Source: Endomicrobiales bacterium
GTDB taxonomy: Bacteria; Elusimicrobiota; Endomicrobiia; Endomicrobiales; JALOBY01
NCBI GenBank assembly: GCA_963796955.1
Contig: CAWCNJ010000009.1
Span: 37,903 to 101,902, forward strand
Reading direction: 5' to 3'
DNA: 64,000 nucleotides
This document shows positions 22,422-64,000 of the stretch, one piece after another; positions within the stretch are counted from its first letter, which is position 1; the number at the start of each line of letters is the position of its first letter. Below the pieces are notes generated by a model. That model saw only the letters and a program-made list of their open reading frames with translations, was not told where the DNA came from and made no database searches. Both the position numbers and the translations under genes were made by a program.

Positions 22422-23239
22422 TATAATTTCCTGATGGAATTGATCAGCTTATCCCACACCGTGGTTCCCTGCACGTGAAGCACGATCGCGCTGACGTTAT
22501 CTCGCCCGCCCGCCTCGTTCGCTGCAGCTACCAGCTGGTCGGCTATGGATTGCGGCGTTGTGTCGTCATTGAAATGAGCGAGTATCTGTTCGTCGCTGAG
22601 CATCTTTGTAAGGCCGTCTGTGCACAACAGTACAAAATCGCCGCCTGCCGCTTCTTTTTCAACCAGTCCCGGCACCACGTTCGTGTCCGTGCCGAGGGCC
22701 CTGGTCAGAACGTTCTTATATTCAGAGCTTTCCGCCTGCTGTGCCGTGATAAGACCCTTGTCGATCTGTTCCTGCACAACTGAATGGTCGCGCGTCAGCT
22801 GGGATAACTGCCCCTGGCGCACCAGGTAGGCCCGGCTGTCACCGACCCAGCATATAATGTACGAATTATTGAGGTACAGCGTCAAGACCAGCGTGGTGCC
22901 CATTCCCTTGTTCTGGGAATAGCTGACGCTCGCTTCGTAGATAACTTCGTTCGCTATCTTAATGCTGGAAACGGCAAAGTTCGCGACCTCGGAAAGGGCG
23001 GGATCGTTCCCGCCGAAAACCATGGTTTCGCCGTTCCCGTCGGCCTTTTGTTGTAACACGGTCGCCAGGTTCTTCGCGATCACGTCGCAGGCCATTTTGC
23101 TGGCGACCTCGCCGGAGCGGTGGCCGCCCATACCGTCGGCTATTATAAAAATGTTATTCTTTTCATCAACAAGAAAATGATCTTCGTTGTTCGCCCGTAC
23201 TCTGCCCCTGTCGGAGACCGCCCCGCAGGAAATGGTCAT
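22421..23239 (-). CDS. PP2C-family Ser/Thr phosphatase
   Basis: GRVRANNED, ADGMGG, GMGTT, VGDSR, CTDGL, GGRDN. Confidence 0.95.
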   Translation of the reverse strand: MTISCGAVSDRGRVRANNEDHFLVDEKNNIFIIADGMGGHRSGEVASKMACDVIAKNLATVLQQKADGNGETMVFGGNDPALSEVANFAVSSIKIANEVIYEASVSYSQNKGMGTTLVLTLYLNNSYIICWVGDSRAYLVRQGQLSQLTRDHSVVQEQIDKGLITAQQAESSEYKNVLTRALGTDTNVVPGLVEKEAAGGDFVLLCTDGLTKMLSDEQILAHFNDDTTPQSIADQLVAAANEAGGRDNVSAIVLHVQGTTVWDKLINSIRKL

Positions 23240-25770
23240 AGCGACCCTGAATTTTTGATAGTCTCAACGCAGCGCTGAAGGTCTGCGGCTATTTCGCTGC
23301 CGCGCTGATAGCGCATATCAGGGTTCTTGTTCAGGCACTTATCCAGGACGGCGATAAGGCAATCGGGCAGATTAGGTTTGAATTCTTTCGGCGAGGGATG
23401 TTGTGCGTTCGCTATCTTGTACATCAGCGTCGCTATGCTGTCGCCGTCAAAGGGTTTGTGGCCGCACAGCAGTTCATAGAACATAACGCCGTAGCTGAAA
23501 AGATCGCTCCTGCCGTCAACTTTTTTTCCGGCGAGCTGTTCCGGCGACATATAGCTGGGCGTGCCCAGCACGGTCCCGGTGGCGGTCTTGGTGGAAGCGG
23601 CGATGTGCGCGATGCCAAAGTCCGTTATGCGTAGGGTGCCGTCTTTTAAAAGCATGATGTTGGCGGGCTTAATATCGCGGTGGATCACACCCTGCTGGTG
23701 CGCGTAGTCCAGGGCCAGCGCTATCTTATTGGCGTAATCCAATGTAAAATTCAACGGTAGCAGGTTCGCTTTATCCGTGTATTTCTTCAGGTCTTCGCCT
23801 TCCAGCAGCTCCATCGCGATATAGGAAACCCCGTTATCTTCGCCGGCGTCATAGATCTTTATAATGTTCGGGTGGTTCAGGTTGCCGGCAGATTCGGCTT
23901 CCCGGAAGAAGCGTTCCTTAATGGCCTTGCCCGAAGCCTCATCAATATCATCGTCGAAACGCAGCGTTTTTATCGCGACCTGCCGGTTGATCTTGGGGTC
24001 TTTGCCGAGATAAACCGTGCCCATCGCGCCATGGCCCAGCTCTTTTTCTATCTGGTAACGGCCAAGCGTGGGGTTTGCGGCCCCGGCTCCTTCCAATAAT
24101 ACGGTCCCTTCTGATGATGCTTTCTTACCGGCGACCCCGCCGAACACCGCGCCGTCCGAGGCTGCCTTAAGTTGTTTAATGCGTTCAGCGACACCCTTGA
24201 ATTCCTTATCGGCCTTCATTATGTGTTCATAAACGGCGACGGCTTTATTGAACTGCCGTTTGCGTTCGAAGTCGAGACCCAGGTTATACAGTAATTCCTT
24301 CATAGGTTCATCAACGGGACACTTGCGGAACTTTTCAAAGGCCATATCGAGCATGCCCTGCCCCTGGAAGGAAAGTCCCAGCATTTTGTTGGTCTCTATG
24401 GCGCCGGCCTCTACCAGTTCCTTCTTTTTTTCAGTGACCAGAAAACGTTTTGAAACGATTATCAGGTAGCCGGTTATCAGCAGTGACATGCTATAAGAGA
24501 TCTTCAGCCAGTAACCGTTGTTGACAAAAAAGTACGTGCTGCCGCCGGTCAGCGCCGCCAGCAACAGCAGAGAGATCAGGGCCCCTGCCAGCGCGTGCAG
24601 CCTGGGCAGTAAGAATGTCACAAAAAGGCCGATAAAGATAAGTGTGCCGAGTTCGGCGTTCTTCGCCCATTCGGGACGCGTTATGAACTTCTGATGAAGG
24701 ATATTGCTGATAACGTTCGCGGTCACCTCAACGCCCGGAAAATTGTGTCCGGCAGGGGTGGTGTTCATATCCGCTATACCGGTCGCCATGTGGCCGACCA
24801 GTACTATTTTATCTTTTAAAGCCGCAGGGTCTATCTTATTGTTCAGCACATCGTAAAATGAAAAATACGGGAAGGTTCCTACCGGACCGTTAAAGTTTAT
24901 CAGCATTGCCGAAGTCGAAGGATCAAGGGGAATTACCGCGCGGCCGATGGCCAGAGACCTGTTAACCGTAAGTTTTACTTCTTCAAGAGGAATATTCAGA
25001 TACATTCTTGTCAGCTGCACGGCGTACGAGGGAAAAAAATCACCTTCGGACCGCACCACCGGCATTTCAGACCTGACGCCGCCGTCGACATCCTTCAGCG
25101 TGTTCACATGGCCCAGGCCCGGGGAGGCGAAAATAAATCCTTCCAGCGGCAGCATCGGGCTGTGGCCTTCTATCTGGGGGAAGACGGAAATGTTAGCGGT
25201 GTTCTCTATCAAGGTGATCGTGCTGGAAGAAAGCATGAGGGATGGTTCGCTTTCCTTGCCGAGGGCAGGGCCCATGGTAAAGTACATGGGCAATATGACC
25301 CTTCCGGAATGTTGCAGGGAGTTGAGCAATATCGAGTCGTTGTCCAGCCGGACTTGAGCTTGTGAAAGTTCCAGTTCTATCGCGTCTTTTAATTTCAGGT
25401 TCCTGCCCGCAAGCGCGGGTAGTTTTTCCTGCAGGTTCTTGATCTCTTCCAGACCCTGATTACGCTCCGGCTCGGTGAAAAGAATGTTAAGCCCGATCAC
25501 CTTGGCGCCGCAATTGTTTATCGCGTCCAGCCCCCTGGCGATCACGGCGCGCGGCCAGGGCCAGCGGCCGAGTTTATTTATGGAATCATCATCGATAGCC
25601 ACAATGGCTATTTCATTACCCTGCGGGGAGGCCTGACGCAATGTGCAGCGGGCATCATACAGCTTCAGTTCAAGGGTTTCAAGGAAGGCGGGTTGTAAAA
25701 AATACAGGCCGACAAACGCAAGGATCAACACGATACCGATAGTCAGGTCCGAAAGGAAGAACTTTTTCAC
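23236..25770 (-). CDS. CHASE2-sensor membrane Ser/Thr protein kinase
   Basis: IDD.SI..LGRWPWPR and PGVE..AN (CHASE2); three TMs; GHGAMG, VAIK, HRDIKPAN, DFG, GTPSYMSPEQ. Confidence 0.94.
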   Translation of the reverse strand: MKKFFLSDLTIGIVLILAFVGLYFLQPAFLETLELKLYDARCTLRQASPQGNEIAIVAIDDDSINKLGRWPWPRAVIARGLDAINNCGAKVIGLNILFTEPERNQGLEEIKNLQEKLPALAGRNLKLKDAIELELSQAQVRLDNDSILLNSLQHSGRVILPMYFTMGPALGKESEPSLMLSSSTITLIENTANISVFPQIEGHSPMLPLEGFIFASPGLGHVNTLKDVDGGVRSEMPVVRSEGDFFPSYAVQLTRMYLNIPLEEVKLTVNRSLAIGRAVIPLDPSTSAMLINFNGPVGTFPYFSFYDVLNNKIDPAALKDKIVLVGHMATGIADMNTTPAGHNFPGVEVTANVISNILHQKFITRPEWAKNAELGTLIFIGLFVTFLLPRLHALAGALISLLLLAALTGGSTYFFVNNGYWLKISYSMSLLITGYLIIVSKRFLVTEKKKELVEAGAIETNKMLGLSFQGQGMLDMAFEKFRKCPVDEPMKELLYNLGLDFERKRQFNKAVAVYEHIMKADKEFKGVAERIKQLKAASDGAVFGGVAGKKASSEGTVLLEGAGAANPTLGRYQIEKELGHGAMGTVYLGKDPKINRQVAIKTLRFDDDIDEASGKAIKERFFREAESAGNLNHPNIIKIYDAGEDNGVSYIAMELLEGEDLKKYTDKANLLPLNFTLDYANKIALALDYAHQQGVIHRDIKPANIMLLKDGTLRITDFGIAHIAASTKTATGTVLGTPSYMSPEQLAGKKVDGRSDLFSYGVMFYELLCGHKPFDGDSIATLMYKIANAQHPSPKEFKPNLPDCLIAVLDKCLNKNPDMRYQRGSEIAADLQRCVETIKNSGSL

Positions 25771-40603: not shown

Positions 40604-42262
40604 ATGAGCGAACTAGCTATTCTTATTGTTGACGATGATCCGGATATTCTGACGACCTTAGGCGATGTGCTCAAGGAAAACCAATGGCATGTTGACCTGG
40701 CTGAAAACGGGACTAAGGCCGTGGCCCTGGTAAAAGACCAGGTGTATGATCTGGTGTTACTGGACGTCAATATGCCCGGGTTGGACGGTGTGCAGACCAT
40801 GATGCAGATAAAGAACATCAGGCCTGAAACGATGGTTTTTCTGATGACCGGCGGCTCTCTTGACCGGATCAGGCAGTTGCAGGATAACCTTATACCGACG
40901 GTATTGCAAAAACCGATAGATGCCGCACGCATCGTGGCTATGGTCGCGGACCTGGAAAAGAAAGGCCAGGTGCTTGTCGTGGATGACGATGAGAACGACC
41001 GGAACCTGCTCGCGGACCTGCTGGTTGAAAGCGGCTACCGGGTGAAGGCCGCCAAAAATGGGGCAGAAGGTGTTGCGCTCGCCGCCGACAATGATTTCTC
41101 GGTCGCCCTTATAGACATGAAACTGCCGGACATGTCCGGCACTGAGGTTATGGAAAAGCTTAAGCAGCTCCAACCGGGTGTTTTTGTAATAGTCATTTCC
41201 GGCTACAGTCTTGACGCGATCATGGACGAGGTCATAAAAAAAGGCGCGTACAGTTGTTTTGTCAAGCCCTTTAACGTTGAGATGCTGCTGAAGGAAATTG
41301 AGGCGGTAATGCATAAGAGCACGGAGCAGTCTTCCGATTCTTCGTTTAACGTTAAACCCCGTATCCTGATGGTGGATGACGATGAGAACATACGTGAGAC
41401 GATGGCTGATATCGTCAGAGAGAATAACTATACCGTCGATACCGCCAGCTCGGTGGAGATGGCCCTTGAGCTGATATCAAAACACACGTATAATGTCGTC
41501 GTCTCCGACCTTAAAATGGGCGACCGCCAGGGTCTGGAACTGGTAGATCCCGTCCACGAGCGTAATCCCGGGACGGCCTTCCTGCTGATGACCGGGCAGG
41601 GAACCATGGAGACGGCGCTTGAAGCGATCAAGAAAGGCGTCAACGAGTATTTGCTGAAACCGTTACAGCCCGCCGATCTGCTGCATAAGCTGGAGGTGCT
41701 GCTGGAGACGCAGCAGCTGCAGATGGAAAAAGACATGCTGATGAAGGAAGTAATGGAATCTAACGTTAAATTGCAGGAAATAACCCGCATAGACGAACTG
41801 ACCCAGGTGCTGAGCCGCCGCTGCCTGTTCGAAGTGCTTTATGGCGAGCTGCAGCGCGCGAAACGGCAGAAGACTTTGATCAGTCTTTTCATGTGTGATG
41901 TTGATGGATTTAAAAGGTATAATGATACGTACGGGCACGTGGAGGGAGATAAGCTGCTGCGTACCATTGCCGACATACTTAAAACAACGGTGCGCCAATT
42001 CCTGGACCAGGTATTCCGCTACGGCGGAGATGAATTCGCCATCGTGCTGCCGGGCGTGGACGAACCGATCGCCCGCGATGTGGCGGAACGCATCTTGAAG
42101 AATGTCGTTGAAAAAGTCGGGCCTTTCAATGTCGGTATAAGCATCGGCGGCGTTTGTTATTCCGGCTCACAGACGGAAATTAACGTCAACGAACTGATAG
42201 ACATAGCTGACAAGAAGCTGTATGAGGGTAAAAAGGCCGGCAAAGGTAGATTTGTAATTTAA
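40604..42262 (+). CDS. Triple-receiver diguanylate cyclase
   Basis: Three xVDDD/D..MP-type/KP receiver units; DVDGFK.YNDTYGH..GD, RYGGDEF. Confidence 0.92.
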
Positions 42263-48367: not shown

Positions 48368-48928
48368 TTGAGATATTTTCTTCGAACAGTTCTGCTGATC
48401 TGCCTGGCCGCGAACGTGTGCTTTGCTACCGCCCCTTCCGTGATAACAGTGACCTCCCTTACGGCGACCCAGAACGGCAAGGCGTGCGAAATAACATTAA
48501 ATAACGCCCTTACCATCCGTGAAATAAATATCGTGAACGTCGGTGGACGTACCCTGCTGAAATTCCCCGAATCCATTTCCAAACGCGGCAAGATATTCCC
48601 ACAGGTGCGCCTTACTTCAAGGCAGGCGCGCGAAGCGGTCTATTCTGCCGTAGAAAAACATGCACCCTCCAGCCACTGGGGGCCGCTGAGCTTTGAGGTG
48701 TCGAAAGTAATGCGCTACGGTAAAAAATCCTCGCTGAAGGCTTTCGTGTCGGTCGTTTTCGGCGGGGGGGTGGAAATAGAAAGCCGGGTCATCACCGGCA
48801 GCAAGGGATTGTTCGTCGCCTGGCCCGCACGTAAATCCGGTAGTCAGTGGGTAGATCAGGTTACGATCGACGATCCTAAAATAAAAAGTGAAGTGGAGGC
48901 AGCGATCATTGCAGCCTACGAGAAATAA
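48368..48928 (+). CDS. Tandem SpoVG-like domain protein with signal peptide
   Basis: LKAFVSVVF...RVI.G.KGLFVAWPARK...W.D...I.AAY resembles SpoVG; a more divergent copy precedes it. Confidence 0.7.
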   Translation: MRYFLRTVLLICLAANVCFATAPSVITVTSLTATQNGKACEITLNNALTIREINIVNVGGRTLLKFPESISKRGKIFPQVRLTSRQAREAVYSAVEKHAPSSHWGPLSFEVSKVMRYGKKSSLKAFVSVVFGGGVEIESRVITGSKGLFVAWPARKSGSQWVDQVTIDDPKIKSEVEAAIIAAYEK

Positions 48929-50313
48929 TGGAAATTAACGAGATCAAGAAACAGGCGCTCAAAGAGATCCTGCAAACCATCGTTGTTCCGGTGGCAGCCT
49001 GGCTTGCGTTTTTCGCCCTGGTATACAATCTCATCAAATCCCCTATCCCGAGAGAATTAATATTCCCTCTCAGCGGTCCCGTGATGCTGGTGTTGTATTA
49101 TTTCTCGGGTCCCATTCAGAGCGGTATTTATCTGGGCTTCCTTACGGTCGTCGGTTTGGGCGGCATTCTGCTGGCCGCCGACGGCGGCATGCGCTGGGTC
49201 TTTTTGTTCGAGACCATCTGGCTGTGGGCCTTCTTCCTGATGATAGAACTATATCAGCAAAACTACATCGCCGAAAGAAACCACCGTAAAGAGGAAGAGG
49301 AAGTTTCTGAAACGCGCCTTGCCCTGCTCGGCAGCACCATTGAATCCACGCAAAAACGCCGTGACAGCCTGATACAGCGCATATCGAATTATCAGCTGCT
49401 CGGGCGCATAGTCCAGATAGCGGGTTCCACGATACACGAAGAGCGGATCCTGCCCATGATCGTGCGTCTGGCCGCGAAATTCATAGCGCGCGGCACCTGG
49501 GACGTAAAGCTGGACGATACCGATAACGCCTTTGTCGAATATGTGAAGAACAACAAGGTGCCGTTGATCATAGAGAACCTTTCCACCGACAACCGCTTTT
49601 ACTCGAAGCGGGCGCGTTTCTCTTCCATGATCGCCGTGCCCGTTGAGGTAAACGGGGAATTCCACGGTATCATAAAAGGTATCTCTTCCCGTACCGATGA
49701 ATTCGATGAAGGCGACCTGCGGTTGTTATCCGTGCTGGGGGGCCTTGCCAGCATCTCTTTGACCAATGCCCGGCTGTACCAGCGCTTGCAGGAACTGTCC
49801 ATAACGGACGGCCTTACCGGCCTGTACGTGCAGCGGTATTTCAAAGAACGATTAAGCGAAGAATTGCAGCGTTCAAAAAGCCATAACCTCGCGCTCTCAG
49901 TGGCATTGATAGATGTCGACCATTTTAAGAAGTTTAACGACAACTACGGTCACAGTTCCGGCGATGCCGTTTTGCGGCAAGTAGCCCACCTGCTGCGCCG
50001 CCGTCTCAGGGAGACCGACTTTCTGTGCCGTTACGGCGGCGAGGAGTTCTCCTTGATCATGCTGCAGACGTGCGGCCAGGAAGCCGGGGTGATCTGCGAA
50101 GAGATACGGAAAAGCATAGAGAGCGAACGCTTCTACCTGCCGATAGAAAGTTTTCAACCGGTCTGCGCGCGCCTGGCTGTCAGCATCGGTATCGCGGAAT
50201 TTTCAAGGGCGGATCAGACGGAAAATGAATTGATAGAGCTTGCCGATGCGGCGCTCTACCGTGCCAAGAAGAACGGCCGCAATTGCGTCGTGCTGGAGCA
50301 ACAAAAGCAATGA
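48928..50313 (+). CDS. Membrane GAF-GGDEF diguanylate cyclase
   Basis: N-terminal TMs; GAF (SMIAVP...F.E.DLRLL...NARLY); TDGLTGL, RETD...RYGGEEF. Confidence 0.92.
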   Translation: MEINEIKKQALKEILQTIVVPVAAWLAFFALVYNLIKSPIPRELIFPLSGPVMLVLYYFSGPIQSGIYLGFLTVVGLGGILLAADGGMRWVFLFETIWLWAFFLMIELYQQNYIAERNHRKEEEEVSETRLALLGSTIESTQKRRDSLIQRISNYQLLGRIVQIAGSTIHEERILPMIVRLAAKFIARGTWDVKLDDTDNAFVEYVKNNKVPLIIENLSTDNRFYSKRARFSSMIAVPVEVNGEFHGIIKGISSRTDEFDEGDLRLLSVLGGLASISLTNARLYQRLQELSITDGLTGLYVQRYFKERLSEELQRSKSHNLALSVALIDVDHFKKFNDNYGHSSGDAVLRQVAHLLRRRLRETDFLCRYGGEEFSLIMLQTCGQEAGVICEEIRKSIESERFYLPIESFQPVCARLAVSIGIAEFSRADQTENELIELADAALYRAKKNGRNCVVLEQQKQ

Positions 50314-51689
50314 TCAATATCTTCGAACTTAGTTTTCTAAAAGACCGCGGGAGATCGGCTGTGCTGCTTGCCGGCTTGCTCGCTGCCTTCTTGTGCCTGT
50401 ATTTTTCCGTTTTTACCGGGTCCATGCGGGAGATCGCGCTCTATTTTCTTATGCTGATCGGCCTTTTCTTCGGCTTTAACTGGCCGGAAACCTCTCTGGT
50501 AACCAATGGTATGGGGGCCTTGCTATTAGTAACAACGGTGCATCCGTTGGTTGCGATCCCGGTACTGTCCCAGCTGACGCTGTTCGTTATCTCCATTATG
50601 GTGCCTTTTTACTTCGACCGGATACTGCGCCTGGAAAGGGCCAGTTACCTGCACCATTGCCAGCCCCTCAGGGAACAGGAGGCCGCCCTTACCCTAAAGT
50701 GCGCCACCTTTGAACAGGAAAGGCAGGACCTGGAAACCGATATCGAACGGATCAATCAGATATATGTTCTCGGCAGGGAACTGGTGGAGCACACAGAAAC
50801 TAGTTCAGTAATAGACAATCTCCAGCGCGTGCTTCTCGGCCGGCCCGGTATGAGGGCGGTCGCTATTTACCTGCGCGAGAACGACGCCTGGGTTTGCGCT
50901 TACTGTTCACGTAAAGAAGAGCAGCGCAGATGGCTGGACTACCTGCAGGTGAAAAAATCCGTTAACAGGGAACACCGTTTCCATATTATCCCGACCAACG
51001 ATCCCGAGAATGGGGAAAAGATCATTTACTGGCCTGTCTGGCTGGAAAAGCAGCTGCTGGCCGTTATCATACTCACCGCAGAAAATTCCGTCGCCGAGAG
51101 GTACCGCGACGAAGGGGAAATATTCATTCCGCAAATAGCGCTGGGACTGCGCCGGACCAAACTGTTCGCCGAGGTTCAAGAGCGGTCCCGCAACGACGGC
51201 CTTACCGGCCTGTACCTGCGCCGCTATTTCCTTGAACGCCTGCTTTCAGAAATTCAGCGTTCGAAACGCTATAGCACGGGTTTTGCCCTTATGATGGCCG
51301 ATATCGACCTCTTTAAGCAGGTAAACGATACCTACGGGCATCTTGCCGGTGATGATGTGCTCAAGGGGCTCGCGGCAGTCTTAAAAGAACGCGTGCGGCC
51401 CGGCGATCTGATCTGCCGTTACGGCGGTGAGGAATTTGTTATCCTTACGCCCATTCCCGACACCGAGGAAGTAATGCGCTCGGCGGAGGCCCTGCGCAGC
51501 GCCGTTGAGAACGCAACGTTCGTCAGCAGCGCGCATACGCTGCACATAACCATCAGCCTGGGTGTCGCGCACTACCCGCAAAACGGCACGTCACCCGAAG
51601 ACCTGCTTTCTTCGGTAGACAAAGCCATGTACTACAGCAAAACCCACGGCCGCAACCAGGTAACGAACTTCCGCGACATCGGCACCTGA
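50310..51689 (+). CDS. Membrane GGDEF diguanylate cyclase
   Basis: TMs; DGLTGL, DIDLFK.VNDTYGH..GD, RPGD...RYGGEEF. Confidence 0.92.
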   Translation: MINIFELSFLKDRGRSAVLLAGLLAAFLCLYFSVFTGSMREIALYFLMLIGLFFGFNWPETSLVTNGMGALLLVTTVHPLVAIPVLSQLTLFVISIMVPFYFDRILRLERASYLHHCQPLREQEAALTLKCATFEQERQDLETDIERINQIYVLGRELVEHTETSSVIDNLQRVLLGRPGMRAVAIYLRENDAWVCAYCSRKEEQRRWLDYLQVKKSVNREHRFHIIPTNDPENGEKIIYWPVWLEKQLLAVIILTAENSVAERYRDEGEIFIPQIALGLRRTKLFAEVQERSRNDGLTGLYLRRYFLERLLSEIQRSKRYSTGFALMMADIDLFKQVNDTYGHLAGDDVLKGLAAVLKERVRPGDLICRYGGEEFVILTPIPDTEEVMRSAEALRSAVENATFVSSAHTLHITISLGVAHYPQNGTSPEDLLSSVDKAMYYSKTHGRNQVTNFRDIGT

Positions 51690-51789: not shown

Positions 51790-54700
51790 ATGTTCCAAAA
51801 CAACCTTTATATTAAAACGGTGGCGCGGATCGTATTGGCGGCCTTCCTGTATTCCTTCGTTGCATTTGAACCCTTGTACGGTTTAAGCGCGATAGGCAAG
51901 GATGTTCAGGCCGATGCAACCGCACGCGCGGTGGTGGACGGGCAGCTTGCCAAACTGGTGCTTTCCGCCCGGCAGGGCCGCATATCCGAAGGCGCGTACT
52001 GTGGTAACAAGCGGCTGGTCATATTTGTCCAGGACCTTCACTGCAATCCGGAAGTGCAAAGGAACATCAGCGACATACTCTCGTTCTTCGACACTAAATA
52101 CGGCCTTAAAAATATATTCGTTGAAGGTTCACCGGAAGGCAAAACCGACCTCTCCTTGTTCACCGGTATCGCCGATCCTGCCATTAAGGAAAGAACGCTT
52201 GAATCACTTCTCAAAGAAGGGCTCCTCAGCGGGGCCATCTATTACGGCGCCAAGAACAATAAAGAAAACGTCTGCGGCCTGGAACAATGGGGTTTGTACA
52301 AAGAAAACGCGGCCCGCATGGCCAGGTTGTTGTCCGCCAAATCCGCATCATCTCTGGAGTGCGCGAAGATCAACGCGATGCTGGATGAAACGATGGGCCT
52401 GCGCTGCTCGGGCAGCCTGAGAACGGCGGACTACAACTATCGGCAGGCTGAAAAAAGTAAAGACAGATACGAACTGCTTGCCCGGACGGCCAGGAACAAT
52501 GATATATCGTTACTGCAATTTCCCAACCTTCGCAGGCAGGTAAATGTAAGCGCCGTCGGCGGGCGGATAAAATTCAGGAAACTTCCCGCAGATCTGCAGG
52601 CATTCCTGAAAGGTATCCAGGAAAAAACGCCCTACGGTGTTTACAAAACCCTGGCCGATAAACTCTCCGACGATAGCCGTGACGGCGAGTTTTACCTGAA
52701 CCTGCAGGAAGTCGCCTACACCTACGCGCCGGCCCTCCTGCGCCAAGGCTCCGGCGGGCAAGCCGGTAATGTAGCGAACTTCCTTGAATATGTGCGGCTG
52801 AATTATTCGGTAAACCCCATGAGCCTGGTCGATGAGGAGGGACGCTTCAAACTGGCCGTACTGAACCATAACGCCCGGACGCTGATAGACCGCGAACTGG
52901 TTTTTATGCAGGCTATGACGGAGAAATTGAACGGTTTCGTGACCCTCGGCATGACGCCCGCTGATTACGCCTGGTTCAGGGAACACGCGGAAGAATACAA
53001 GGTTACATTAATGAAGTATTACGGCGCCGCACGCACCGCGGAAGTACGCAGGATATTGTCCGATAAAGAATTGTACGCGTACTACGATATAAACCTTGAG
53101 CGTAACGATGTCTTCGCCAAAAACCTGATCGGCGACGGACGTGAAGTGCCCGCCGATGAGATGAATTCCCAGATATTGAATCTTAAGACCGTAAGCGAAT
53201 ACACCGAGGTGATAAAACACCTTGCGGAATTCACCCGCATAGACGCCGTCGTAACGGGCGGTTTCCATGTAGAGACCGCCAAAGCCCTGAAAGCCCGCTG
53301 TATATCGTATCTTACCGTCACCCCCAACATAACAAAAAAGGCAACCGGCGACCTCTACGAGCGCATGATGTCCGACCGGCTGACGATGAAAGATTTCGCG
53401 ACCTCTTCGCTGTCGCCGAAGTGTATCGACCCGGCGCAGGTTATCGCACTGGGCGACGTAGCCACGAAGTTCGGCCTGGACCCGGTGGCGTTCACGAATG
53501 TGCTTGCGAGAGCGGCAAACGGTGTGCGCGACGAGAACGGGGAAGGGCAGATTGTGATCAGCAAAGACCCGAATAACCAGTATGTTATCGCCCAGCTGAG
53601 GCAGGCCAACGGCAAGGTAAAGACCGTAACCTATATCTTCAGCGATGGAAAGTTCATTAAAGCCACTGCCGCCGGCTGGGATGATGAAGCCCCGGCAATT
53701 GACTCAACACCTTCGGCTGATTCCCTGACAACAGAAGGCACGATCGATCGCGCTTTAAAGGAAAGCTGGATACTGCGGTTCTTTAATAAGGCTTTCGGGC
53801 CGTTGGGCTATGCGGCCGTCAGGGTTTTTATCTCAATTAACCGTGCGCCGGTATGGGAACTGGAAGATATCGCGCTTGCGATCACCGATCTTGCGTTGAA
53901 TCCCGGCGAGCATGATCACATTATCTACGACACATTCATGGAAGCCCATAAGGGTGGCGCGACGACAAAGCGCATTGAAATGATGAAGAAGATGGCGGAC
54001 CAGTGCGTTCAATGGAGCCTGGACCACGATGGCGTAAAAGTACTGGTTGATCATGTCTTGCTGTTAGCCCTGCACGAACAATATAACCGCGAACATAAGT
54101 GGAGCAACTTCTGGAAATTATTAGTCAGTAAAACATCCGATGCACTGACCACAGGCGATAAATCGCCAACTGAGATGCAATTTGACAATTACGTAAGGGA
54201 AGGTAAAATACTCACCACCTTGGCTGACAGGGTCGGGGTTGAGAATCCTTACGTCGGAGGCAATTTCAGTATCCAGTGGGTAATGAAGACCGATCCTGCC
54301 TATAAGAGGAGAGCGGTGGAGCTTGTTGATCGTAAAGAGGTGTCAAAAAGGCTTCATGCGCGGATGTACGGCGATGACCCGTCGAAACGTATTCAAATTG
54401 TGCCGGCTGCGCCTGTTTCAGGTGAAACACGTAAAGAAAAAATCCCGCGTCTGGTTGTTGGCAAAACTGAAACATTATTTGATAAAGAATCCTTTGTTAT
54501 CGGCAGCAATCCCAACGCTGTTGATCTTCTTGTCGATGATCGGCTTGCTTCCAGAAGCCATGCCAGAGTGTCGGTCAAAGACGGTAAATATTATCTGGAG
54601 GATCTTGGGAGCACGAACGGAACATACCTAAACGGTAGCAAGCTGAAAGGCAGGCAACAGCTTAAAAACGGTGATCTTATTGAAGTGGGAAAGACGTCTA

Positions 54701-57700
54701 TAAAATTTGAAATCCCCAGGTTCAAGATCGGCGCTGAAACCTGGGTTGGTCCTGACGGGCGGAACCATGGGTATAGAATAGACGGCGGAGAGGATGCCGG
54801 AAGATCGAACTCGCGCGAAAAGCTGGTCGCCGATTTTGACAACGATAAGCCGCTCAGAGATGCTTACGAAAAGATAAAAACGGAATTTGAGCTGTCGCGC
54901 GCAGGATCACAACTCTCTCCCAGCGAACAAAAGATGGTTTTGATCAAAATGGTGTATGATTCCATCTCCAAGATAATGTATGACGGCGGTTGGGCCGACA
55001 GAATGGTAGAGATGGCAAAGTTAGAACCCAACAAAACTTTCCTTCTTGGGCCGAATGTCATAGTCCCGAACAGAGGCGTGTGCAGGCATATGGGGCTTTT
55101 GTGCGCCGCTGTTATAGAACGGCTTATAAAAGAAGGGATAGAGGCCGGTGACGAGGGTTACCCGAAAGGCGCCGTTTATTACGTTCGCGACTCGAAAGAA
55201 GGGGTTGAGAACGGGCCAGGGCATGGCTGGGCTGTTTACCGTATGACCAGCGGTGAGCTTGTGGTGCTGGACGTGGCCCAGCGTAATTTCGGGCTTATGG
55301 GCGATGAACGCAACGGCATGAAGTTCGAAGGTCCACAAGGAAAAAAATACTCGTACGGGTCTTACCTGCCCGACGGAATAAAGGGAATGGAAGTGACACC
55401 GGCGCCGATCCCCACGGTTGCTTTCAACGGAATACCAGCGCAGTTCAATCAATTGGTCAACCCCGGACCCCGCGCTGCGCGGGAAATACCGATAGCAGCA
55501 GTTGAGCAGATAGATGATCAATATGCCAAAGAGCTTGAGGCGGAGGTGAACAAGGCGGCTGCAAAGGGATTGCCGGAACTAACGGCGCTGGTGGAGGAAA
55601 ATCTTCATGCATTCGAATACACCACGGGAACATTCAAAAGATTAATTGAGGGAATTAAAACCGGTAAGTACCAAATGTTACATATAACGAAGAAGTTCGG
55701 GCTGAGGTTTGCCGTGGCGCAAGCGATCGGATATAGATCCACACCTGAACGGGGCGTTACGCCACAGCCCGTTGCCCAGCCAGAGAATCCGGCTCTTCAA
55801 GCAATTGGCGCGGTTCAAGCCCCGGACCGGCAAAAAATTACACCGGTCGTAAGATCGAGAGGGTTTTTCGAGACTTTTGCCAAATCAGCCGCGACGGTAA
55901 GATTGGCGTTGGCAGGCATGCTGACTGGGTGGCTTACCCTTACGGGTGCCGGGGTGCTCGTTGCTTCGTTAGTTTTCAGCCTTGCATTCCCGGCGATCGC
56001 GGCTGCAAGCCTGGTTGCCGTGTCGGCGAGCATCGCGCTCACGATCCGGTTTGGAACAATGCAAGCGCAGCAGTATAAAATACTGCGTTCGCTCGGCACA
56101 CCGGGTATTCCCCGCGGTCCTACAAATGATGTGAACGCCGCTTTAAAAGCCATACATACCATTATGGCTATGTACCCCGCGCTGCAATTGAATTTCGAAA
56201 TAACCAACTGTTTTGACCTTCCTCCAGAAATACTTGCCCAACTTCCGCTCAATGTTAAATTAACTCCGGATACGAAATTAGATGATACCGAAGTTGCCGT
56301 CCCCGGTAAAAATAATACCATCCAGATTAACGCCGATGCGATGAAACGGCTTGCCGCTCTCGGTGATAGGGCCGAGGTGTGGGCTCTGGACCCGGTGTCA
56401 GTTCTTGATCACGAAGTGCGCCATTATGAATTCAGGAACAGATGGCCTCGTATCTCAAAACTACCTTTCATTGAAGAGATCGCTGTTACCATGAAGGACC
56501 ACGTCATAGCCCACCAGAAAACCGTTCAAGCTGCGGCGCGCCCGCTTATTAACGCCGAACGTCCGGTCGTTGCGCCCCGGGCCGACCGGCCAATGGCGGT
56601 TCTTTGCGGCGACCCGTATGACGGCTTGAGGGAGGCTTACAACAACGGCGGAATTTCAGCCTATGTCGCCGCGGTAGAAAGCTACGCAAAAGAACATAAT
56701 TTACCTTTATCATCGAACAACGCCCCGCTGGAAGGGAAAGAACACGTCGGACGGGGAGGGGCGGGTGGTGTGTATGTCGACAAGAGTTCCGGTGATCATG
56801 CGGGAGAGTTCGTAAAGCAGCAGGTAGAGCCCATAACAGATACCGATCTGCAGGCGCGCAAAACTTCGTCCGACGCGCAACTGCTGGCGCAAAAAGATCT
56901 TGAGTTGTTGCACACTACTCTGGAAAACTCCATTGCGATGCTCAGGGAAGCGGAGAACGTAGTTAAGCTGGAGGCGGAGGGCGTGCGTGAAGGTATACCT
57001 ACATTGTTGTCTATGGGGATAACCCCGGACGGCCTTGTCTGGACGAATATGGTTTCTTTGAAGCACGCAAAGAGCCTGGCGGATAAATGGAAAGACCTCA
57101 ACAGCGCCCAGCAGGCGGAGGTTTTGTGGACGGTGGCGCTTATTCTTTCGGATATTCACTCAAAGCGTATTGTCCATAGCGACATTAAGCCGTTGAATAT
57201 TCTGGTCGACGATGACCTGAATGTAAATATCATCGATTTCGGCACGGCGGTTCCGGTCGGCGCGCAGTCAATCGCCTCAACTCCGGGTTTTCTGCGTATT
57301 ATGCAGCTACGTGAACCAAGGGTCCCTGCATATGATATCTATAGTTTTGGCAAGATGATAGAGTTCCTGTATAATCCTCCTAACCGGCAATTAACGGTAG
57401 AGGATGGCGAACCCACTACCTTAAAACTGGAAACTATCAAAGACCAGGCCCTGCTGTCGATAGTCCAAAAGATCTACGATGTTAATAACCCCGTAACAAG
57501 TTTGGAAGAAATTCTACAAACTCTCGGCAAGATCGCCAGGGATGCCAGAAAGAAATCCACTGCATCTACACCAGCCATCCTGCCTGCTGCTGACGACTCT
57601 AAGAATGATATTGAAGAAATAGAGAACCCGGAATTCTTGACCACCCCGGAGACGTTTGATGAATATCTGATACAGGTAGCTTTTAAAGACGCCTTGGCGG

Positions 57701-60700
57701 GTGAGGGGATAACTGATAAGGTTCAACAAATAAACAGAGCGCATGAGTTGTTCAATGCATTGTCCCCGGATCGCCAGGAAGCATTGCGCAAGGATGCCTC
57801 CGAGAATTTCGCGCCGGTGTATGAACTTGGGACGTCTCAGGCAGCGTTGGATGAGCTGGCCGCCGGCAAAAAGGGGAATGCGTATAAGGAATTCCTTTAT
57901 GCCCACAATACCACTCGTCTGCCAAACTGGCTGTGGAAATATACCAGGCAGTCCCGAGCGCTGCAGGCGGGTCTTGCCGCGATGCTTGAGGTAGTAACGA
58001 ATCTTGCCGGCAACGGTGATATCTCTGTAATAGCTATGACAGCCACCCAAATAATGTTCAGCAAACTCAGTGCCGGCCAGCAAGCCAACGTAAACCTGCA
58101 AGATTTGGCGAGCCAAATAGAAGCCCTGCTAAGATCCCCAACGGTCACAGCCCTTAACCTAACCCCCGGCCTCCTGGCCAACATAGCCGCCCACGCCGCC
58201 TGGAACATGACCCATGGAGAAGGGGAGCGTTTGACGGTGATGGGAGTGAGCGCACATCAGCGGCATATGAGGGCTGATGAATTATTTAATTTCAATTTTA
58301 TGCTAAAGCAAACTGGCGGGAAATCCGCGTTTAAAGGGTATACCGTTGTTGATTGCATCGGCGTCGGCGGGTTCGGCGCGATATACCTTGCGACAAACGA
58401 CCAGACCGGCAAAACAGTTGCCATAAAAACGCTTAGAGTAGATCTGAGGAAAGATCAGGATGCGCGTGCAAAACTGGTAAGGGAGAGGGAGTTTTTAAGG
58501 ACAGCTAAAAACAGCCGTTTCCCTAAAGTGCTGGAAGACAGTGTGACGCAATCGGCAGAGGGGACGCCCTATTTAGTAATGGAATACATACAAGCGCCTA
58601 CGTTGGCGCAGTGGATCGAACAGCGCAAGGACATGGAAAACACGCCTGAATATACACGCACCTGCCTTGAGATAGCCAGGCAGACAGCCGAAGCATTGGC
58701 TTACCTGCACGGGCGCGGCCTGATACACAGGGATATTAAGCCGGAAAATATAATGGTGATAGAAAACAAAGGCAGGATAACAGTAAAAGTTATCGACATG
58801 GGATTATTGATAGAGGAAAATGAAAAGCAAGGAAAGGGCAAACACGGTTCATTAGGGTACATGACAAAAGAACAAAAGTTAAATGGCCCGGCTGACAAGA
58901 CATTTGATATTTTCGCGCTTGGCGTTGTGATGCTGGCGATGTTCGACCACGAACAGGTTGATCTGTTCAAGAACGGCAACCCCGACCTTAAAGGCGCGAT
59001 GCAAATGCTTGCGGACCGGCTGGACGCAGTCAGTCCAAAACTGGCGCAAAAAATAACAGACCTTATCAATAATACGACCAACGGCCAGGCTCAAGATATT
59101 AATGCCGTATCAAATGATCTGGAAGCTGCGTTGAAAGTGTCCGGGCAACGCAGTAACGGGTCAATGGTTACTAAAAAGACCCGCGTTGTATCTCGGCTGG
59201 TTTCTATCACTGCATTGGCGCTTGCCATGCTTGGCATTACACAAGGTAAATCCTTGGCTGAAACAAATGCGCGCAAACCTGTCCCGGCAATGTCCAATGC
59301 CGGGAAAGCTCCTGTTGCCGCGGTTGACGACAGTCTGCCGGTACGTGAAAGGGCGGAACAGATAACTGACAGGCTTATGGGAACGGAAGGCTTTGCTGAT
59401 GATTTTGGTGATCACGTTTTTTCTGGCGGCATAACAGGGTATCAGATGCTACAGGGCGCGAACACCGCAGCCGACAGGCAGTCTGTTATGAAAGCCGTAA
59501 GAATGATCTTAAGAGCATGGCAAAGAAGAATGGCTTGCCGATATCTTAAGCATAACCGTAGTGGAAGATTCTGCCTTCCCGGATGCAAATGCAGCGATCT
59601 TCTATGTGGATGCTAAGGGTAGAATGATAGTTCAGCGCTCCAACGCGAGCAAAGTCGTTTATCTATTTGCCAGCATTGCACATGAGGGACGGCACCCCTA
59701 TTTGAATCTGACGAATCTAACACGGGAAGAGGCTGAGGCGCAGTGCCTTTCTAGAAATGTTGAGGCGATGGAAATAGTACAGGATGACCAGCAAAACGGT
59801 AAGAACGCTGAATATTGGGGTCCTGAAAAGATAAAACAAAGCGATATAAATACGCAAAAATGGTTTGCCCACTGGGCGCAGAATGGTAACCTGAAAGTAA
59901 CTAATCGTGCGGCAAATAGTACTGAAGCAAACCGTGCCTTTGCGCCGTATAACGCCGCTATTAACTTCCTTATGGTGCAGTTGCAGAGCGACCCGGAAAG
60001 CTTTAAATACGATTCAAACAAGAGGATCAATAAGGGTTCAGAAACGGTACTGGAAAATAATGGACAACAGAAAATCGTTAAATTTAACGGCTACGAAATA
60101 ACGTTCATTCATAATGGAGTTCCACAGGTCGTTAAGGTTTCCGACGATGGAAAAACTATCTATCAAGGTAAGATCTACGATAGCATAAAAGAAGTTAAAT
60201 TCAAGATGGGATCCGCCGAGGCGGACAGCGTTAACGCGGCTTTTGCCGAAATGAATGCAGTTTCCGGGAACAACGGCTCTTCTGCCGCACCTGCTCTCGC
60301 AAAAAACAGGTCACTACTTGGTTCGCTGACCGCAAAATTATCGTTGGTGGTGCTGCTTGGCTTGATCAGCGTAGGTTGCATGGCGCCCGGCAAAGCGGGA
60401 ATGCTCCCGCTAATGGTAGTACAACAGTTGTTGCTGACACAACAAATTCGCCGATCATGGATTTCCCAAAACCCAGCGAGACGAAAGATCCGCTTACCGT
60501 CGCTTCCGAATGGACGGATCTTTCAAGGTTTGGCGCGGATTTTGGAAAAGAAAACCTTGCAAATAATAGTAATCTGCTCGGCACCGCCGTTCTGCCCGGC
60601 GCGAATACGCCTGATGATATTAAAAATCTCGCGGCTGCTATAACGCTTTTAAGGCAGCATGGTCTTGGCTACGCAATTGATAACAATTTGATCGCTGGTA

Positions 60701-63500
60701 TAGTTATCTCGGGAAATATGCCGGCAAGCGCGCAGGCGATAGATTCCAAGGAATTGAAACGCCGGGCCTATATAGGCATCGCCAGACCCGATGCCGCCGC
60801 CGTGGCTGCCAACCCGTACGGTGTAGCGGGCTGCATCGCTGTCTCTTTAGCCCATGAGGCCAGGCATATAATAAATGGTCCCAAACGCGATTCGGGCGGT
60901 ATGAGTATCGCTGAGGATGAAGCGGACGCTTTAATAAATGGAACAGCAGCGGCCATGGCGGCGCTTGGCTTCGACCAGATGAGCATTAACAGTGTAAAAT
61001 ATTTTGCCGACCGGTTGCTTGCCGATCCCGATCTTGACAATGCAGTATTCATGGTGGGCGGTGAACTTTCGGATGACGCAAAAACAAATGCGTTGCAGCC
61101 TTTTGGGCTGGCTGTGGGCTTCATAAGCTCAAAGCTGAACGTTCCGGTAACCAGCCTGGTCTACGCAACAAGCGTCAAGAGGATGGCCCCCAATGGCAGC
61201 TCCGCGATGGATTTCACCTTCAACGAAGGCCAGGCTAATGGGGCTCAGGTGAACATTACGGTGAACTCTGATAATTCTGTTATATTCCAGGGCACAACCT
61301 TCCCTGCCGCTGATGCAGAACCGCTTGGGCTTATGCCTAAAACGAAATTGAGCAGGCAGTACAACGTGCTGCAGAACGTCGCAGCCGCGGCTGTTGCGGC
61401 CGCAGTGGGTATCGCAGGAATCGGTCTGTTAAGCTTCGGCATCCTTTTCGGTATAGCACCGGCGTTAGCCGGTATAGCAGCCGTCATAGCTTTAACGGTC
61501 CAGGTAAGGACCGCCAAAGCGGCGAAGAAAGCGGTCAGGAAAGATTACAAAACCATACCTGAGACTATAAAAGATGTGCCGGCGATTTCTCTGCCGGAGA
61601 ATTTTGCGTTGCTTGGAAGAGCGGCCCAGGAAAGCTTTGTATTAAGCAAACTGCCAAAGCTGCGCGGTAATGCAGCTGCCATCGACCGTGCAATACAGTT
61701 GTTCGCCGGTCTTTCCGCCAACGGCGCAAAAACAATTATTCTTACCAACACCCTTGGCGAAAATACCCACGCCAATACCGACCCCACAACCAAAACAGTA
61801 CAGGTCGCCAGCTGGATGATAGACGGCAACACCACTCCGGAATTCGACGCCCTAATGGCCGAACACCTGCCCATGATAATAAGCCACGAGGGTCTACGAC
61901 TGCAAGGTTACGGTACTCTGCAACATATTTTAGAGATGTAGTTACAAGGTTCTTTCCAGATTCCACACGATCTCCGAAATTTGATAACTTGAAAATATCC
62001 TCTAAACCTGACAACATGAAGGAGTCCGTGCCGGCCTCGTCACCTGGGCAAAAGGTTGAGAATCAGGCGTATATTGATCTTTTGCAATCATATTCAAAGG
62101 ACAATCTGCTTGATCCTCAACAAATGGCACAAAATGTACAGGCATTTATACAGAAAATTGGAGCAACTGTTCAGGTTCATAACGACTCAGAATGGGATGC
62201 CCAGCATCAACTGAGCGTTAACGGTTTACCTCCAGCAGAAGGGTATGCTGATATGGAGAATAAGATCATCCATCGTCGGCAAACTTTAGTTAATCCAGAG
62301 CAGCTGGCAGAATTGTTAGGACATGAAGCCGGTCATATCGCGGATTATTCCATGCATATTACTGCTAAACTGCGCATGGGTGAATATGACGCGATACAAC
62401 AGATCGTCGGCGGCGCTTTCAAAACAGATCCGCAAAATGTCAAAGTTGAAAATTTCAGAAATCACTCAGGAGGGGATCGTATTGGAGATTTCAGCGGGAT
62501 TCTTCCAGAAGCTGTCGCGCAATCAGTTGGAATGTACATTATGAACCCTAAGGAGTACGCCAGAAAATACCCAGCCGCTGCCCGTTTCCTTGTTTCGTGT
62601 CTTTTCCCAGAAGAGAGCAGGAACGGTTCACTATTCGATGTTAATTCCGATAACCTAGAAAGTCAGATCAAAAAAATATCAGCAATTGCAAGAGTAAGGA
62701 TCTTTATCAGAGATGTAATTGCAAGGCTCTTCCCGGCTTCGACAACAGCCGAAAAATTACAAGCTACTCCTGTCCCCGTTAGTGCTCCCTCAGGCGAAAT
62801 AAAATTGGACGGCTCTTTGACAAGAACAGAACTTACTGAGGTGTTGGATCCAATACCTGCGGTGGCTCGCGCGGTTCAAAATATTGTCGCCAACACCTGG
62901 GCGAGTGAGAACCTTGAGGAATTCGCGGGCAGCGGTGTGGTTCTTGCCGCATCTACGCCTGAAGGGTATGCAAAAATGCATGAGAAGGCGCAGGCGATGG
63001 CCCGTATGGGGGTGTTGGTGACACTGGTGGCACTGCCAGGAGCAAATGTTGCATTGGAAGCGGGGGCGGCAACACAAACGTTGTATGCGGGCAGCAGAGG
63101 TATAGCCGATGACGGGACGGCGCGGTATGTTGGCATGGAGATCATTTCTTCCGTTGAGAAAGTGGAGCATGGGAAGGATATTCAAATATTGCTGGCGCCC
63201 TCTGAGCAGGTGCTTAATGTGCTGGTGGAAGAGACCCGCGATGGGGGAATTCTTAAAGAAGCTTTCGGCGGTCATGAGAGGTTCGGGTTGCTGGGTGAAG
63301 GCTCATTGGGGATGGGTGCTGTAAAGGGCGCTGCGAATGATGCACTTACCGCCCGGGTTTGGAATGACGGTATTGATGCGGCAACTGAGCTTATCGAGAT
63401 GGTTAAGGGCGCCAGAGAGGTTCGCTCGGCGATGCAAAGCCGGCTGGCCGACCAGGCGCGCAATAGAAAGCAGCCCGTGGTCATGGGCAGGGAGATCGCC
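51790..63500 (+). CDS. Giant modular protein (FHA, transglutaminase-like, 2 protein kinases, multiple HExxH domains); split by apparent indels at ~59510, ~60390, ~61920; 3' end lost at a sequence junction
   Basis: ORFs 51790-59616, 59561-60643, 60376-61941 and 61989-63578 join through overlapping open frames; internal repeats run across the 59510 and 61920 breaks. Confidence 0.8.
52732..52763 (+). repeat. Short REP-like palindrome inserted in frame in the giant gene
   Basis: CCCTCC-TGC-GCC-AA-GGC-TCC-GGCGGG-CAAG hairpin translating as LLRQGSGGQA. Confidence 0.55.
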
Positions 63501-63642
63501 CTCTCTCCGCTGAGCGTCGGGATGCGCGTGCACGAACAACAGCCGCCTGCTCGTCCGCCGCATCATGAGGGGGAGTAGCCGAGCTCATGGTGACGAGCCT
63601 ACCGGCGGATCCAGGATCGGCCGGAACTGGCAAAATGCTGAT

Positions 63643-64000
63643 ATGACCGACAGTTTTCCCCGCCAGGAGCCAGGACCAGACGGTTCACGCTGGGGATGCC
63701 GCGAGCGTTCCGCATCTCCCCCGACCGCGCCCGGGTCGCCTATCCGCACCCAGGGCGGCGGCGACCCGGTGACCTGCCTGTGGGGGCTGGACGTGGCGGC
63801 GGGATCGAACGGCTGGTCGTCGACCCAAGAACACTGGGCGGCGAGTCCGGGGACCTGCCGCCGCAGGGGCGGGCCCGCCGGGAACGGGTCAGGGAGCAGG
63901 CCGGTGGCATCGTCACCTACGCGACCGACGCGGACGTGACGGTGGCCGTCTTCGCGCTATCGGGGCGCGTCTACGCGGTCAGCCTGACCGGCCAGGAGTG
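63643..64000 (+). CDS. S9-family (dipeptidyl-peptidase IV-like) peptidase N-terminus, actinobacterial type; partial and indel-ridden
   Basis: MTDSFPRQ..RTRRFTLG, GGGDPVTCLW.LDV, RRERVREQAGGIVTYATD...VFALSGR read across frames; very GC-rich. Confidence 0.65.

Follow-up and report, generated by a model that had tools for sequence, protein, structure and literature searches.

The locus considered here raises the question of whether four consecutive open reading frames (ORFs) at the end of a bacterial contig are four genes or one and, if one, what kind of protein they encode. It lies in a stretch of 64,000 nt from contig CAWCNJ010000009.1 of an Endomicrobiales bacterium (phylum Elusimicrobiota); we refer to this whole stretch as the window and give all positions in its numbering. 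The four ORFs, at 51790-59616 (2608 residues), 59561-60643, 60376-61941 and 61989-63578, with high probability form one giant gene. We propose that this gene belongs to an unnamed chassis-plus-cargo family of the Endomicrobiales and Elusimicrobiota, whose members share a signal-like start, a head of the TIKI fold, spacers, hydrophobic hairpins and an L.A[AG] tail and exchange the enzyme cassettes carried on this frame; judged from sequence comparisons, the probability of this reading is roughly 0.85. The first-pass annotation had taken the architecture to be of an unrecognised kind, a view that no longer holds: the gene belongs to a very large family with a head assignable to the TIKI superfamily.

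A constant head and its cargo

The protein starts with a predicted Sec-signal-like N-terminus (51790..51880; this and all features of the gene are on the plus strand), which has a basic n-region and a hydrophobic stretch at residues 8-26 and is conserved in the family. The head follows at 51922..53424. An AlphaFold model built from 57 sequences (predicted local distance difference test 91) gives it a split alpha/beta core, a parallel beta-sheet with helices on its flanks, around a helical insert of about 280 residues. When the best 50 matches in structure comparison are listed, EreC (Z 8.1, root-mean-square deviation 4.7, 171 residues aligned) and ChaN (8.1, 6.6 and 190) tie as the best that span the core, followed by BcR135 (7.5, 7.6 and 165), HopBA1 (7.2, 4.1 and 158), 2qgm (7.2, 4.6 and 156) and the C-terminal region of PMT (Z 5.9); five independent TIKI-superfamily structures in this list span both halves of the core. 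A de novo helical bundle reaches Z 8.2, on the insert alone. The candidate site consists of D82 (52033), H84 (52039), E112 (52123), R438 (53101) and H493 (53266); the first three are invariant in 57/57 heads and the last two are kept in at least 90%, at identities of 24-73%. Of 114 unique heads, which were chosen by QDLH, 113 have EG at about +28, and all 106 of sufficient length contain GGFH. The site keeps the TIKI order D-x-H, E, R, H, with a His-to-Glu spacing of 28 that equals the value in RRSP and Bcr135, for which an active site of E-x-H, a Glu 28 residues later, Arg and His is described, together with the inactivity of PMT, which lacks it (PMC6254334).

Several observations weigh against this assignment. 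The Z values are moderate, in a range that the tool rates common, with tetrapyrrole methylases close behind (Z 7.6); the first acid of the site is Asp in place of Glu; and a Foldseek search with the head model returned no match at E ≤ 0.001. TraB/Tiki itself is absent from the VIA structure matches listed for the head, and the head sequence has no match in Pfam, NCBIfam or the PDB. The modest Z scores gain weight because the conserved residue pattern fits the TIKI site, and the head can thus be placed in the TIKI superfamily with a predicted role as a hydrolase. A literature search, with preprint supplements and domain catalogues outside its scope, found no paper that names this domain or places it there.

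Matches to the first 560 residues occur in 34 of the 41 genomes searched (Endomicrobiales, Elusimicrobiota; its own genome included), with up to 36 per genome, and the longest open frame of the head family reaches 12,656 residues. A 99%-complete genome of the same taxonomic family has no match, and the genus with the smallest genomes has one or two in each of 4 of its 8 genomes. In a scan of GTDB, 512 of 558 pattern matches were confirmed as the head, and 76 of the 78 loci listed are labelled Endomicrobia or Elusimicrobia; two head-bearing contigs (L109, L124) are labelled Nanoarchaeota and Bacteroidota, where mis-binning is likely. Atlas look-alikes of the head are unnamed clusters from Omnitrophota and Elusimicrobiota, which bears out an earlier suggested link to the giants of Omnitrophota-type lineages.

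What follows the head varies. Pfam domains were matched in 22 of 37 family segments scanned, at least 11 of the 37 being covered over 4,900-5,000 residues only, and the content is variable with some recurrences: CMK, PGI, PGM, PFK, ADK, transketolase, glycogen enzymes, GGDEF, HD, HAD and nucleotidyltransferases, and further methyltransferase, kinases, PLD/PLC, M48 and HATPase. As the first-pass annotation had anticipated, the homologues combine a constant N-terminal domain with variable cargo, and invariant content was not what the 37 segments displayed. The only match to cytidylate kinase above cut-off in the genome lies inside a paralogue, and three of four other genomes have none above cut-off. 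In two genomes (loci L051 and L056; G027, G018) a stand-alone pgi lies directly upstream of a giant gene with a diverged PGI copy, which suggests cargo capture from the neighbouring gene. At L051, two giant genes with the head lie in tandem, and in one complete genome paralogues next to each other have near-identical starts; together these suggest recent duplication or conversion. A search of the 8-mers upstream of family genes recovered no shared element, the top ones being AT-rich or GGGTTTTT (26/106), the latter absent from the leader of the giant gene.

The boundary between the constant and the exchanged part appears to lie at a spacer. Two Rce1/CPBP-like modules were read from the sequence of the giant gene, spacer 1 at 53806..54201 (AP.WE...F..AH...H..YN, here degenerate) and spacer 2 at 57763..58296 (AP.YE...F..AH...H..WN); both lack EExxxR and are weakly hydrophobic. 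The general form (AP..E, F..H, H..N) is present in 38 copies in 23 of 60 family sequences, with F..H and H..N each conserved in no fewer than 90% of 37 copies, of which two match PF02517 (Rce1-like; best E 4.4e-5); the PDB gave no match to the spacer. The closest paralogues can be aligned only as far as spacer 1 or a little beyond it (residues 710-792), and this spacer is therefore read as an exchange boundary. The single metagenome locus that matches the head diverges after residue 792.

Four reading frames at one locus

The four ORFs had been proposed to merge into one frame on correction of three small indels, and the codon usage agrees. A Viterbi model trained on the other long ORFs of the genome places exactly three frame switches in 51790-63500, near 59513, 60407 and 61936 (break 1, 59511..59515; break 2, 60406..60408; break 3, 61935..61937), and the in-frame pieces add up to 2574+298+509+521 = 3,902 residues with no stop. 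At break 1, the alignment of two repeated units, A and B, runs across the switch with a score of 82 (z 8.2; maximum of 300 shuffles 61), where each half alone gives z 2.4 and 3.8. Breaks 2 and 3 are placed by the codon model, repeat alignment being positive at break 1 only.

The two ends of the locus also fit one gene. Among closed ORFs with the head that are longer than 1,500 residues, 30 of 41 finish in a hydrophobic tail of the L.A[AG] type, as do only 5 of 730 ORFs of at least 350 residues in this genome, all five at family loci; ORF1 has the family head without that tail. ORF4, on the other hand, holds the start of a tail region common to paralogues of the same genome (62778..63482): its residues 281-515 match two intact paralogues (E 8e-7 and 2e-6) about 590-600 residues before their L.A[AG] ends, and a piece of a third (E 6e-12), so that the full length is estimated near 4,500 residues. 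From codon model, motifs and tail comparison, the gene extends over 51790..63480, with about 3,900 residues visible and its 3' end truncated. The extent of 51790..63500 given to it earlier contains the ORFs as described, but the gene is not finished there; it is cut by foreign DNA of high GC, probably chimeric and outside the gene (63480..64000). GC climbs to 0.7-0.8 beyond about 63400, bases 63643-63979 match an actinobacterial (Nonomuraea) record at 69%, and the contig ends at 64000; no other contig end of the assembly has comparably high GC. The contig end is thus probably a chimeric join. L.A[AG] tails resemble C-terminal LAA-type protease degrons; no tmRNA, whose tag could be compared, was found in the genome.

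We consider it most likely that a gene of about 4,500 codons is split by three one-base indels that are assembly errors. Compared with a genome of the same family over 133 kb, frame changes affect 8 of 116 orthologues, including dnaA, atpD, secD, gltB and ilvB, and the assembly is therefore indel-prone; none of the eight breaks lies at a homopolymer of five or more. Set against this is the possibility, to which we give only a small chance, that the breaks are real and reflect 3' decay of a formerly continuous giant gene, with only a truncated ORF1 product (head to kinase 2 plus one helix) being made. In its favour is the clustering of the breaks: three within 2.4 kb, and three in 11.7 kb where 0.7 would be expected from the genome-wide rate (P 0.035), an excess that keeps decay in play and weighs against the assembly-error reading. 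Four other family loci of the assembly are in pieces as well, and the family is dispensable, as the 99%-complete genome without a match indicates. However, no piece has an in-frame stop, frameshifts also hit genes such as dnaA, atpD and secD that should be essential, the breaks fall within the last 4.5 kb ahead of the chimeric end, and giant genes are described as routinely broken by long-read indels (West-Roberts et al., bioRxiv 10.1101/2023.11.21.568195). It is less probable still that ORF2 to ORF4 are separate genes of an operon, or that translation also begins internally at units A and B, given that each has a signal-like helix of its own. A Met does stand ahead of this helix in unit A (59164), as it does in a homologous unit of another genome, yet the start of ORF2 would fall within a repeat module, the first ten or so codons of ORF3 would be out of frame, the tail region of the family is in ORF4, and homologous units sit within single long ORFs. 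Comparison of ribosome sites carries little weight here, as only one of five reference genes of the genome has a Shine-Dalgarno-like run. Neither the metagenome contigs nor 121 other genomes yielded an intact orthologue, and ORF3 has no relative in those contigs and short weak matches in just two of the 121 genomes. Elsewhere, headless runs of consecutive ORFs of 1,200-8,800 residues, several of them overlapping (G000 C4:114211-166238, C6:107877-168364, C7:33899-62480, C8:303711-340777 and C2:2-15256), probably represent further giant genes that indel noise of this kind has broken up.

Cargo, topology and proposed working

The cargo of this gene is a rare set. Behind spacer 1 lies an FHA domain (54496..54690, residues 903-967; PF00498, E 1.4e-17), followed by a domain with a Cys-His-Asp triad (54790..55410; Cys 55081, His 55222 and, placed by alignment, Asp 55270). 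The latter has 158 relatives, with the triad invariant in all 87 aligned, and its model matches transglutaminase-like structures: TglA (9crn, Z 8.8), LapG (4fgo, 8.2), Ceg10 (9b8d, 7.8) and 3isr (6.8). All of its top 27 VIA matches belong to the transglutaminase-like clan (Atlas 0.95); Pfam, and Foldseek at E ≤ 0.001, gave no match. As modelled, the domain is a transglutaminase-like cysteine-proteinase fold that forms a separate, unnamed branch. Hippocalcin matches to its profile were rejected because they cover a helical pair only. FHA accompanies the domain in 11 of 31 relatives scanned (of 150 listed), some with PP2C or a metallophosphatase, and the TIKI head does so in two of the 150 listed, one of them with kinases. 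Within the Elusimicrobiota it occurs in 5 of 301 genomes, and in no other member of the Endomicrobiales. The FHA and Cys-His-Asp cassette is also found in large signal-bearing proteins with non-TIKI heads (P0006, P0012, P0014, P0022 and others), and several scaffold families therefore share cargo.

Two Hanks-type kinases follow, identified by profile and motifs: kinase 1 at 56749..57530 (GRGGAGGV, HSDIKPLN at 57175, DFG; E 1.8e-13) and kinase 2 at 58339..59067 (GVGGFG, AIK, HRDIKPEN at 58726, DMG; E 9.4e-37). Pfam Pkinase matches the giant gene in two stretches (E 6.4e-49), and both kinases keep the Gly-loop, the VAIK lysine, the HxD..N loop and a DFG-like motif, their relatives all being distant. 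The best NCBIfam match of kinase 2 is NF033483 (E 1.6e-48, below cut-off); its nearest database relatives are only 25-38% identical, and identity to a stand-alone kinase of the window is 29.6%. That stand-alone gene is part of an operon of CHASE2-Hanks kinase, PP2C phosphatase and FHA genes 26 kb upstream (21387-25770, minus strand), 27-35% identical to the kinase and FHA of the giant gene.

Four HExxH motifs with a Glu downstream complete the set. They lie in a zincin-like module with HEVRH (56410) and a downstream EE (56300..56520, no Pfam match), in unit A (59164..59900, HEGRH at 59681, spanning break 1), in its paralogue unit B (60311..61100, HEARH at 60853, spanning break 2) and in a module with HEAGH (62322; 62100..62600). 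The only family-level match is a weak one of the last module to Peptidase_M48 (E 0.018, below cut-off), and the zincin identity is read from the motif. Units A and B, read from the sequence, each consist of an internal signal-peptide-like helix, a linker and an HExxH+E module; the HEVRH, HEGLR and HEAGH units gave no significant alignment to them (z < 4). Such units in three genomes (the window, L049 and L055) each start with a complete signal-peptide-like segment inside the chain, and the unit B helix ends in a Cys, loosely lipobox-like. Together, kinase 2, the helix behind it that is led by KKTR, and unit A have the look of a receptor kinase that was captured. The motifs of the first-pass annotation were found where it had placed them. 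It had counted five HE motifs, of which HEGLR (61885) is not HExxH and is degenerate, and the parts in its domain order are all present, but it had overlooked two single helices (59182-59241 and 60311-60403) and the two spacers.

Membrane anchoring, another of its claims, is upheld by these single helices together with two hairpins recognised by hydropathy, at 55888..56061 (two or possibly three helices) and at 61366..61509, the second preceding HEGLR. Across the family, hairpin loops are short (median 6) and free of K/R in 94 of 128 hairpins; K+R in the outer flanks exceeds that in the loop in 112 of 128, and the flanks are net positive. Large domains on the cytoplasmic face therefore fit, with a signal that is weak because flank K+R, at 0.129 per residue, is near the background of 0.121, the net charge coming mostly from fewer acids. 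Most family cargo requires ATP, GTP, S-adenosylmethionine or sugar phosphates, as cytoplasmic cargo of the cell's own would, so that the same face again fits. The near-background charge is one of several points that count against such a placement. No transmembrane segment of hydropathy of at least 1.6 lies between residues 26 and 1367, and under a plain Sec model an exported head and a cytoplasmic FHA domain are therefore incompatible. Four of 17 relatives have such a gap ahead of their ADK, methyltransferase, APH and GT5 cargo, and 37 of 100 family bodies have no transmembrane segment in the 300 residues after the head; of these 100, 36 have a single and 39 a paired first hydrophobic cluster behind the head, and 10 have none. 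Units A and B each begin with a helix of N-in type, with no return helix between. With an export-like N-terminus and no strong helix between head and cargo, no simple topology fits all members.

With this caveat, we tentatively give a slight preference, at somewhat less than even odds, to an inner-membrane scaffold that its own head would process; delivery to other cells comes second. The hairpins would pin the protein to the inner membrane of the producer, and FHA, the Cys-His-Asp enzyme and both kinases would lie on the cytoplasmic face; kinase 2, which is followed by KKTR and a single helix, would be arranged with this helix and an outer HExxH unit in the manner of a receptor kinase. The head may be the peptidase that processes the polyprotein, with cleavage for instance near a motif of the S[AS]L[AS]P type behind it; that this motif was seen in just 26 of 106 counts against the idea. 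The outcome could be a phosphorylation-controlled array for proteolysis and signalling at the cell envelope.

The action on other cells inferred by the first-pass annotation would take its most explicit form in a delivery chassis, which we hold to be somewhat less likely than the scaffold: the signal-like start would export the whole protein, head or spacers would free the cassettes, and the cargo would act in or on a neighbouring cell, be it prey or a host microbe, where ATP is available. The kinases, the Cys-His-Asp enzyme and the zincins would then be polymorphic effectors, and copies of housekeeping type would re-route the metabolism of the partner. Extended to Elusimicrobiota and Omnitrophota together, this would be a polymorphic processing-and-delivery system in which a TIKI autoprotease head and Rce1-derived spacers cut the precursor and cassettes pass into or onto the partner, an idea we hold with equal reserve; that the L.AA-type tail serves there as an export or unfolding handle is no less doubtful. 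Such delivery would account for a signal followed by nucleotide-dependent cargo with no transmembrane segment between, for the many exchangeable copies per genome and for homology to close paralogues that stops at a spacer. For PGI and ADK, stand-alone genes exist in addition to the cargo copies, which are therefore not needed for the core pathway; this sits uneasily with an own-cell role. The TIKI superfamily takes in RRSP and HopBA1, an Omnitrophota giant protein is described as up three-fold on prey attachment (PMC10066038), and an unchanging peptidase at the N-terminus combined with cargo that varies is the plan on which toxins of the PVC-metallopeptidase and PrsW kinds are built (PMC3482391). 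On the other hand, no RTX, RHS or known toxin domain is found in the 22 of 37 segments with Pfam matches, the polarity of the hairpins fits insertion from the cytoplasm, and the genus with the smallest genomes has few matches. The upstream genes (uvrA, Tol-Pal-like genes, SpoVG and two GGDEF genes) include none for delivery, the downstream side being missing. That the head is instead a non-proteolytic binding or chaperone domain, and the protein an uncut surface scaffold displaying enzymes, is improbable. ChaN, which ties for the best spanning structure match, binds haem; the first acid is Asp, and both spacers of this copy have lost EExxxR, all of which suits a binding head, whereas the conservation of five site positions over 57 divergent heads, with GGFH in 106/106, favours catalysis or metal binding.

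Two membrane GGDEF genes lie directly upstream of the giant gene (48928-51689), and a third, receiver-GGDEF, at 40604-42262. LapG, one of the fold matches of the Cys-His-Asp domain, is a c-di-GMP-controlled adhesin protease, which hints at a possible link to these genes. The gene at 48368-48928 encodes a protein with two SpoVG-like stretches after a signal-like N-terminus, which is odd for a nucleic-acid-binding family.

Whether the products of giant genes of Omnitrophota and Elusimicrobiota are cut, and where their cytoplasmic-type enzymes work, is a recognised problem in the accessible literature. Expression of a single domain would allow both questions to be addressed: the head is soluble, about 500 residues long and modelled with confidence, has five conserved site residues and is present in most of the Endomicrobiales genomes searched. 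If the cargo reaches other cells, the family would be a new effector platform, and this gene would carry a kit for phospho-signalling and proteolysis (two kinases, an FHA-targeted transglutaminase-fold enzyme and zincins); otherwise, it is an unusual case of capture and tethering of enzyme copies. The locus is also an example of how assembly indels hide such genes.

Comparison with known systems

The first-pass annotation drew an analogy to MARTX effector arrays, which is not supported in that form: no RTX repeats were found in the genome (81% complete), the start is signal-like, of Sec type, and family cargo is mostly of housekeeping type. Judged by the accessible part of the MARTX literature (PMC6315884), the systems share one polypeptide, constant ends, exchangeable central enzymes and a TIKI domain. 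They differ in that MARTX proteins have repeat arms and type I export, whereas the giant gene has a signal-like start, integral hairpins between its cargo and a TIKI domain that is the constant part and not an effector. RTX (PF00353) had no match in the genome (81% complete, with the last 600 or so residues of the gene missing, in a search that matched 2 of 14 controls), and RTX repeat arms had none in the giant gene or its paralogues. The C80 domain of MARTX toxins, an InsP6-activated cysteine protease, had no Pfam match in the giant protein, the genome-wide search for it being insensitive (0 controls matched), and no transporter genes lie directly upstream.

Giant proteins in these phyla are described in PMC10066038, PMC11573180, PMC12057145 and PMC12419801, where the last-named paper notes metallopeptidase and papain-like domains in them; PMC11257099, on Endomicrobia genomics, gave no mention of giant proteins in a term search. 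For Omnitrophota giants, the accessible text of West-Roberts et al. reports N-termini generally without identifiable domains, glycolytic cargo whose localisation is in doubt and a possible role of C39 or S8 in self-cleavage, and a 'multi-enzyme' class 1 is described by Nielsen and Lui (bioRxiv 10.64898/2026.06.07.730766). Like Archaeovorins and this class, the giant protein is very long, has a signal and scattered transmembrane helices and is tiled with unrelated enzymes; the shared kinds are glycolytic, glycogen, methyltransferase, GNAT, HAD, GGDEF and kinase, and breakage by long-read indels is common to both. It differs from them in phylum, in length (about 4,500 against more than 10,000-30,000 residues), in having many paralogues per genome and in its TIKI-superfamily head, which the accessible text on Omnitrophota giants does not mention. 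SecA-DEAD, C39 and S8 domains were found neither in the giant gene nor in the 37 family segments, within the coverage given above.

With the TIKI superfamily (EreA/B/C, Bcr135/136, ChaN, TraB/Tiki, HopBA1, PMT C2 and MARTX RRSP), the head shares the parallel beta-sheet core, the acid-x-His, the Glu 28 residues later, the Arg and a second His after the last strands; its large helical insert, its Asp for the first Glu and its constant position at the start of giant proteins set it apart. Polymorphic toxins of the PVC-metallopeptidase and PrsW types, as far as their description in PMC3482391 was available, likewise have a constant N-terminal peptidase-like domain, variable cargo and CPBP-related motifs, but the giant chain carries many cargo domains, mostly of non-toxin folds, with no PVC genes seen and no immunity genes near it on the side that is present. 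The Cys-His-Asp domain agrees with transglutaminase-like cysteine proteinases (TglA, LapG, Ceg10 and 3isr) in fold and in the order of its triad, and differs as a separate branch of 158 representatives, often with FHA. Kinase 2, with one helix and an outer domain behind it, resembles receptor kinases such as PknB and Stk1, in contrast to which it is embedded in a giant chain and has no PASTA. By size (Archaeovorins exceed 30,000 residues), phylum and SecA content the giant protein is not an Archaeovorin, nor is it a MARTX; giant proteins of this general kind are already known, whereas the literature searched holds no assignment of this head to the TIKI superfamily.

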